A stretch of 64,000 nucleotides of DNA from Escherichia coli (lineage in GTDB: Bacteria; Pseudomonadota; Gammaproteobacteria; Enterobacterales; Enterobacteriaceae), in NCBI RefSeq assembly GCF_050320075.1, contig NZ_CP190018.1. One strand, written 5' to 3'. The translations under genes and the position numbers were made by a program. How positions within the stretch are numbered: the first letter of the stretch is position 1; every line of letters starts with the position of its first letter. The notes under the pieces are model-generated. The model saw only the letters and a program-made list of their open reading frames with translations. It had not been told where the DNA came from and ran no database searches. Below are positions 10,876 through 11,140 of this stretch, one piece after another.

Positions 10876-11140
10876 GGCAGCCTCCTTGAAGTAACAGTTA
10901 CAGCTACCACTGGAGTTCCTACGCTCATGGGTGGTAGCCCGGACGGGGGTAGGAATACCGGCCTTCAAGGAAACCGGCCAGCCCGAAGGCTGCCCCGCCC
11001 GGACCACCATTATCTGACAGAGGCTACGGTTTAAAAACCACAGCCAGAAAAACAGGTGTGCCGAAGCAACGACGTAAAAAAAGACGCATGGCGCGTCATA
11101 TGTCGCCTTGAAGTAACTCGGGTTCCTACGCCCGGCTGCC
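10876..11140 (-). promoter_or_regulatory. P4-type immunity/early control region with repeated 'cttgaagtaac...gttcctacgc' elements (seqA/seqC-like)
   Basis: Two copies of 'ccttgaagtaac(N)gttcctacgc' at ~10876-10920 and ~11107-11140 flanking GC-rich structured sequence; matches logic of P4 RNA-based immunity (cI RNA with seqA/B/C). Confidence 0.35.

Follow-up and report, generated by a model that had tools for sequence, protein, structure and literature searches.

In phage P4, RNase P generates the 5' end of the cI RNA from the PLE transcript, and PNPase trims its 3' end. The mechanism was worked out in a line of studies (Ghisotti 1992; Dehò 1992; Sabbattini 1995; Forti 1995, 1999, 2002; Briani 1996, 2000). 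The P4 CI RNA derives by processing from a transcript that is not translated and, through pairing with seqA upstream and seqC downstream, brings about premature termination (Hershko-Shalev et al., 2016; PMC4825925), and the P4 seqA RNA was called a structural homolog of IsrK in the same work. Likewise, IsrK and C4 were described as structural homologs of the P4 seqA and CI RNA (Barquist et al., 2013; PMC3632133). The timm fragment of P4 corresponds to X51522 8365-8209 (PMC3177188). Furthermore, the P4-like retronphage phiR73 is given as heteroimmune to P4 in a citation of earlier work (Sabbattini et al., 1996, Virology 216:389, cited in PMC7567579).

The locus compared here with these systems belongs to a satellite prophage (approximately 7143-16685) in the window, i.e. 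the whole 64-kb stretch of Escherichia coli DNA that was analyzed. This satellite comprises alpha, orf106, orf151, epsilon, kil/eta, cI, vis, sid, delta, psu, a hotspot gene and int. Among its ORFs, epsilon belongs to the Derepression family, orf106 to DUF5375 and delta to Ogr/Delta, alpha encodes a primase-helicase, and sid, delta and psu are located on the strand opposite to the early genes. An earlier note on this DNA had drawn attention to two copies of a repeat of about 30 nt that flank a GC-rich, structured segment, and had proposed an RNA-based immunity like that of P4. In the whole 64-kb window, we found exactly two copies of the bipartite repeat CCTTGAAGTAAC-N-GTTCCTACGC (plus strand), and not a single match in 100 dinucleotide-preserving shuffles. 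Thus, two copies exist as claimed, but they are not of uniform length: they measure 41 and 26 nt and have two conserved blocks of 12 nt and 10 nt in common. The flanked segment (10927-11014) was described correctly. It spans 88 nt with 66% G+C, its predicted fold has an MFE of -53.3 kcal/mol (z = -5.0 vs. shuffled controls), and it is located between the 65-aa ORF and the vis-like ORF, where the note had placed it. Both repeats and this segment fall inside 10876-11140, the range given in the note. The looser pattern GTAGGAA-N-CTTCAAGG occurs at three places only in the window, with 0.02 expected; these are both repeats (minus strand) and, as complement on the plus strand, the intervening seqB. 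A chance repeat is rejected because of the missing shuffle matches and the low expectation for the looser pattern. Further cI targets elsewhere in the 64-kb window, searched as the bipartite pattern, were not found.

The immunity region is transcribed from the minus strand, and its parts are compiled in Table 1. The PLE-like promoter is the sole sigma-70-like site that a consensus scan detected in 10500-11750. Its -10 element coincides with the '-10 consensus' annotated in the P4 record X02534, and the sequence there is identical to P4. The leader is predicted to fold in the order hairpin 1, hairpin 2 with the b block GTAGGAA in its loop, single-stranded a block CTTCAAGG and t1-like terminator hairpin, the stem of the latter being kept in 14 relatives with one compensatory pair in the alignment. 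Beyond t1 and a spacer of 62 nt follows cI, for which a 17-bp closing stem and two hairpins are predicted, a' being placed in the second hairpin, whose loop has 12 nt, and b' in a single-stranded junction. Located three bases past cI, seqC contains GTAGGAA, followed by a 24-nt spacer and CTTCAAGG, which runs into AGGAGG. The a block of seqC thus overlaps the Shine-Dalgarno sequence of kil, and the GGAG and ATG of this gene are kept in 14/14 aligned relatives. RefSeq names kil a 'host cell division inhibitor Icd-like protein', while ORF88, the P4 counterpart of vis, is annotated as 'excisionase and transcriptional regulator'. Within the replication (left) operon, the module occupies the leader, after PLE and vis and before kil-epsilon-orf151-orf106-alpha, as in annotated P4. 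The sequence features of t1 and timm are both present and terminator activity is predicted from them.

Table 1. Features of the immunity region with their position in the window, strand and nucleotide identity to phage P4.
Feature	Position	Strand	Sequence, basis or remark	Identity to P4
Repeat copy 1	10884-10924	+	19-nt spacer, 41 nt in all	
Repeat copy 2	11106-11131	+	4-nt spacer, 26 nt in all	
vis, 88 aa, AlpA-type HTH, upstream gene of late-left transcript	11226..11492	-	PF05930, E = 7e-21	
eta-like ORF, 184 aa	10675..11229	-	open across PLE, seqA, cI, seqC; ends as kil	
vis to transcription start				96.8%
PLE-like constitutive promoter	11190..11161	-	-35 TTGCCT, 18-nt spacer, -10 TATAGT	
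Leader element with seqA, IsrK and c4-a1b1 homolog	11077..11154	-	Rfam and fold	
seqA, upstream repeat copy	11106..11131	-	GCGTAGGAACCCGAGTTACTTCAAGG; b block GTAGGAA 11129..11123; a block CTTCAAGG 11113..11106	69%
seqA end to t1 end				96.7%
t1-like intrinsic terminator	11097..11076	-	GACGCGCCATGCGTC then T7; terminator scan	
t1-cI spacer			45 gap columns	54%
cI RNA gene, C4 antisense RNA family	11014..10927	-	RF01695; mature RNA within span	77%
seqB	10945..10970	-	CCTTGAAGGCCGGTATTCCTACCCCC; a' CCTTGAAG 10970..10963 in hairpin-3 loop; b' TTCCTAC 10955..10949 in single-stranded junction	
seqC, downstream repeat copy	10884..10924	-	GCGTAGGAAC…GTTACTTCAAGG; b block 10922..10916; a block 10891..10884	66%
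kil ribosome-binding site and start	10870..10886	-	AGGAGG 10886..10881; ATG 10872..10870; read from sequence	
kil, 65 aa, 'Icd-like', first translated gene after PLE	10675..10872	-	ORF list	98.6%
P4 timm equivalent (Rho-dependent terminator), inside kil	10716..10872	-	154/157 bases (98%) identical to P4 timm fragment	
Beyond kil				100%

Alignment with the immunity region of P4 and prediction of RNA structure, both proposed in the earlier note as checks, turned out in favor of a P4-type system. The 1-kb immunity region is 94% identical to P4 (BLAST) with the same gene order, and when the phage collection was searched with this region, only records of P4 covered >=80% of the query. An Rfam search of the immunity region, repeated on the whole window and judged by the curated cut-offs, delivered three families of structured RNA, each matched over its full length, in addition to the stable fold: the C4 antisense RNA (RF01695) matches cI over its full length (1-87) with 86.1 bits vs. 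a cut-off of 45, isrK (RF01394) matches the leader element at positions 1-77 of 77 with 73.4 bits vs. 50, and c4-a1b1 (RF03163) was detected at 11167..11115 with 49.6 bits vs. 46.7. Complementarity, the lack of which would have spoken against the proposal, was found as well, since a stretch of the segment between the repeats is complementary to each block of either repeat. The predicted duplexes (RNAduplex) reach -24.4 kcal/mol for seqB:seqA and -22.2 kcal/mol for seqB:seqC, with all 8+7 block positions paired in either case. We thus regard it as highly probable (roughly 90%) that the repeats are seqC and seqA, the target sites of the cI antisense RNA in the immunity switch of a P4-like satellite. 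The layout agrees with P4 feature by feature, and by every sequence-level test of membership the module is of the P4 immunity type. Expression and processing of the RNA as well as the immunity phenotype we infer by analogy with P4.

The alternative that survives best, at a very low probability, is an anti-immunity module of the P1/P7/N15 type (c4-icd-ant), in which the role of the C4 RNA would be limited to repressing translation of the icd-like gene and, by polarity, the downstream antirepressor. The locus belongs to the same Rfam clan (C4, c4-a1b1) as such modules, seqC extends over the ribosome-binding site of a gene called 'Icd-like', and weaker BLAST matches lead to P1-like plasmids and to lambdoid Rha/antirepressor regions. 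Looking for the parts of a P1/P7 module, we indeed found a C4 RNA with a1b1 upstream and a2b2 at the icd-like ribosome-binding site, but no ant downstream. The genes located there are instead epsilon, orf151, orf106 (DUF5375) and the alpha primase-helicase of the P4 replicon, and the backbone is 96-100% identical to P4. Since both mechanisms overlap in the block of the first cistron and in Rho polarity, this alternative concerns the membership of the module and not its action.

The immunity region matches 3144/5426 complete E. coli genomes at some level, with >=80% of the query covered in 1839/5426, about a third, and both isrK-like and C4 elements are present in 13 divergent E. coli loci and in P4. 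For the analysis of covariation, the seqA element, cI and the seqC leader were concatenated for 14 sequences, namely the window, P4 and 12 of the 13 divergent E. coli loci. Across this alignment, compensatory double changes affect 23/29 intermolecular pairs: 12/15 between seqA and seqB, with 99-100% of the cells paired, and 11/14 between seqB and seqC, with 100% paired. If the partners are slid by 1-3 columns, pairing falls to 34-48%, and none of 500 shuffles reaches the observed covariation score. Covariation in the 14 sequences likewise supports the helices of the cI scaffold and the hairpins of the leader. Judged from these substitutions, the pairing of seqA, seqB and seqC is under selection.

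Even slightly less probable than the P1-type alternative is that the repeats are a by-product of coding, i.e. that an Ash/Eta protein with a repeated peptide motif (RRNPSYFKA in one copy) explains them without any role for RNA. The 184-aa ORF is open across the whole region, its indels relative to P4 total 45 nt and are in frame, the Pfam family PF10554 (Phage_ASH) matches eta residues 22-131 with E = 4e-34, and RefSeq holds an 'ash family protein' or a long 'Icd-like' CDS at this position in every relative, the RNA being unmarked. However, a peptide repeat does not call for a third, reverse-complementary copy in between. Moreover, the three sites change together so that Watson-Crick pairing is kept, some of these changes being A-U to G-C swaps by which the peptide is altered, and three structured-RNA models score above their cut-offs. 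Because of the reverse-complementary third copy and the covariation, we reject the peptide repeat as sole explanation and keep the eta ORF as an overlapping feature. It is 70% identical to the 199-aa ORF of P4, the length difference of 45 nt keeps the frame, and 11 relatives have an equivalent annotated ORF of 181-199 aa. The eta ORF is probably real too, as is eta in P4, so coding and RNA roles would overlap and are not mutually exclusive. The stretch matched by Phage_ASH is the translation of seqA-t1-cI-seqC, and RefSeq marks an ncRNA at neither of the two C4 modules in the window but annotates the stretch as 'ash family protein', either as CDS or as pseudogene, or as a long 'Icd-like' CDS. 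The conservation of the Phage_ASH protein may thus largely reflect the RNA. Equally improbable is an inactive relic, i.e. a decayed satellite with repeats that are no longer functional: while the element stands in a tandem array with a decayed neighbor and no P2-like helper was found in the 64-kb window, every P4 core ORF is undisrupted and of full length, the promoter, t1 and the cI scaffold are likewise intact together with each of the 30 pairing positions, and the immunity region is conserved at >=99% identity in 130 complete E. coli records.

Under a P4-type immunity, the following course of events could be envisioned. In the lysogen, the constitutive PLE would transcribe the leader, and this transcript would be processed to a small, tRNA-like cI RNA. 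The latter would display seqB as two blocks: a hairpin loop would present a' CCTTGAAG, and the junction next to it b' TTCCTAC. Pairing of seqB with seqA on nascent PLE transcripts would favor termination at t1 and, as concluded from P4, result in autoregulation. Pairing of seqB with seqC would cover the ribosome-binding site of kil and block its translation, and termination of the untranslated RNA would then follow ahead of or at the Rho-dependent timm inside kil, which would keep epsilon and the alpha primase-helicase off. As in P4, transcripts from the upstream late promoter that translate eta through the region would be expected to escape immunity.

While the module resembles P4 in its architecture, its divergence from P4 is concentrated in the parts that determine specificity (Table 1), and the backbone and flanks are 96-100% identical. 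The a block reads CTTCAAGG in the window and TTCACAGG in P4, the a' block CCTTGAAG vs. CCTGTGAA, and the b and b' blocks GTAGGAA and TTCCTAC vs. GTGAGAA and TTCTCAC. These changes in seqA, seqB and seqC are matched and compensate each other. In addition, the t1-cI spacer comprises 62 nt compared to 107 nt in P4, which accounts for an eta of 184 aa instead of 199 aa. Cross-duplexes between window and P4 are predicted to reach only -11.7 to -15.4 kcal/mol, in contrast to -26.5 and -29.7 kcal/mol for P4 seqB with its own sites. Since all three sites depart from P4 together in their a and b blocks and the cross-duplexes are weak, we consider it likely that the element would be heteroimmune to P4, i.e. 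belong to a different immunity group. However, five Watson-Crick and one G·U of the seven pairs would still form between b' of the window and the b target of P4, and with six of seven pairs thus kept a partial cross-reaction is possible. In an energy matrix across types, cognate duplexes average about -30 kcal/mol, those with one block in common range from -23 to -27 and those with none from -17 to -20 kcal/mol, a graded trend only, since the ranges of cognate and non-cognate types overlap. For the same reason, we do not claim strict orthogonality from duplex energies. From its sequence, the element appears to combine a near-P4 backbone with a variant immunity cassette. The module is probably a known system with a specificity other than that of P4, a difference in recognition that goes beyond what the earlier note had claimed.

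To what extent such variants occur among relatives was seen when IMG/VR was searched with the conserved core of cI. At least 120 loci were obtained, 115 of them complete enough to analyze, with redundancy within the sample. Among the matches listed, all 30 pairs are kept in 99/115 loci in fixed register and in 111/115 after correction for a 1-nt junction indel. The correction concerns the b block, for which 13 apparent failures in fixed register all carry 'TCTCACC' and have a cI gene with a junction 1 nt shorter. Re-anchoring chooses the best offset and hence leans toward pairing, but 99 of the 115 loci are perfect without it. The 115 loci comprise at least 16 a' alleles, at least 5 b' alleles and at least 35 combinations of both. 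At least 46 allele quartets show all four combinations, thus the a and b modules reassort. The number of functional classes is below 16, since C or T opposite G is the only difference between some a' alleles. The type of the window (CCTTGAAG with TTCCTAC) is the commonest among the matches listed (16 of 115 loci), and P4's own type is rare among them (3 of 115). That P4-like satellites carry a two-module RNA 'barcode', in which 8-nt a and 7-nt b alleles reassort and are always matched at three sites, with the element of the window as one cassette variant and co-resident modules, such as the second one at 5575-5815, kept orthogonal, is in our view an evenly balanced proposition. Along the transcript, a and b blocks are interleaved (bA-aA … a'B-b'B-bC … aC), yet their alleles reassort, although a change of one module would require two separate patches to be replaced in step. 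Reassortment therefore needs either coordinated replacement of separate patches or half-matched intermediates that are viable; multiple conversion tracts or such intermediates could provide the route. A population-level description of a/b allele reassortment was not found in the searchable literature, and the main text of a large survey of P4-like elements (PMC8628076) does not discuss immunity, antisense or non-coding RNA.

The surroundings of the module comprise further elements. A second complete C4-type module is located at 5562-5830 (plus strand), with an isrK-like leader (5575-5653), a C4 RNA (5676-5764) and a seqC-like site that ends in GGAGG and the ATG of a 156-aa ORF (5818-6288), which starts with MATILTT like kil. 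Its blocks are self-consistent but form a different set, a' CCGATAAG with CTTATCGG and b' AGGCTAA with TTAGCCT. The predicted cognate duplexes reach -26.7 and -27.9 kcal/mol vs. -12.3 to -18.4 kcal/mol with the P4-like module. Since cognate duplexes are that much stronger than cross-duplexes, two apparently orthogonal immunity RNAs would reside about 5 kb apart. This second module lies within a decayed integrative element (257-6637) that abuts the alpha end of the P4-like satellite and comprises an AbiEii/AbiEi toxin-antitoxin pair (257-1946, minus strand), a 1069-aa RNA-directed DNA polymerase (2262-5471, plus strand), a frameshifted HTH gene and an integrase remnant (6434-6637). The psu-int hotspot is the position where P4-like elements carry anti-phage systems. 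In this satellite, it is occupied by a 464-aa ORF (14123-15517, minus strand) that RefSeq names 'HEPN domain-containing protein' and for which neither a Pfam match at 1e-3 nor a PADLOC match was obtained; the satellite integrase gave no PADLOC match either. Between the satellite int and tRNA-Thr(cgt) (55717-55792), a P22-like prophage of about 38 kb (approximately 17100-55800) is inserted, with a P22-type capsid, gp4/gp10, tail needle, ejection proteins, a lambda-type N/Q/nin region and its own integrase. Decayed element, satellite and P22-like prophage follow each other in series, so that the proA-proximal tRNA-Thr site carries a stack of three elements. This satellite is also present in strain ETEC-2265, where it directly adjoins the tRNA.

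With respect to annotation, an RNA immunity switch is presented by RefSeq as 'ash family protein' or 'Icd-like' with the RNA unmarked, and the Pfam family Phage_ASH would in effect be the translation of an RNA module. Through seqA/seqB/seqC recognition, the immunity group should become readable from sequence alone, and such a group assignment would predict which P4-like satellites coexist or exclude each other in a strain. Furthermore, matched a/b alleles could serve as ready-made orthogonal antisense/target pairs for the synthetic control of transcription termination.

Taken together, the RNA immunity system of the P4 type is already known, and the window holds another member of it with a non-P4 specificity. 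Compared to P4 (NC_001609 / X51522), the same elements occur in the same gene order, cI scaffold, t1 hairpin and timm are conserved, and seqB pairs in the same bipartite manner. The C4 RNA of P1 and P7 and the anti-immunity RNA of N15 (Rfam clan CL00128) resemble the RNA predicted here as processed, tRNA-like antisense RNAs with a'/b' blocks that have a1/b1 upstream and a2/b2 at an icd-like ribosome-binding site. However, C4 controls an antirepressor in P1, P7 and N15 (secondary immunity), whereas the RNA of the window, by analogy with P4, would be the primary immunity factor of a satellite replicon without ant. IsrK / STnc1160 of the Salmonella Gifsy-1 prophage (RF01394) is matched structurally over its full length by the leader between PLE and t1; while IsrK activates orf45-anrP translation in trans (PMC4825925), the leader of the window precedes kil, epsilon, orf151, orf106 and alpha. 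Finally, phiR73, as reported, provides a precedent for a P4-like element whose immunity specificity differs through cI and its targets, and the variation found in the window is of this kind.
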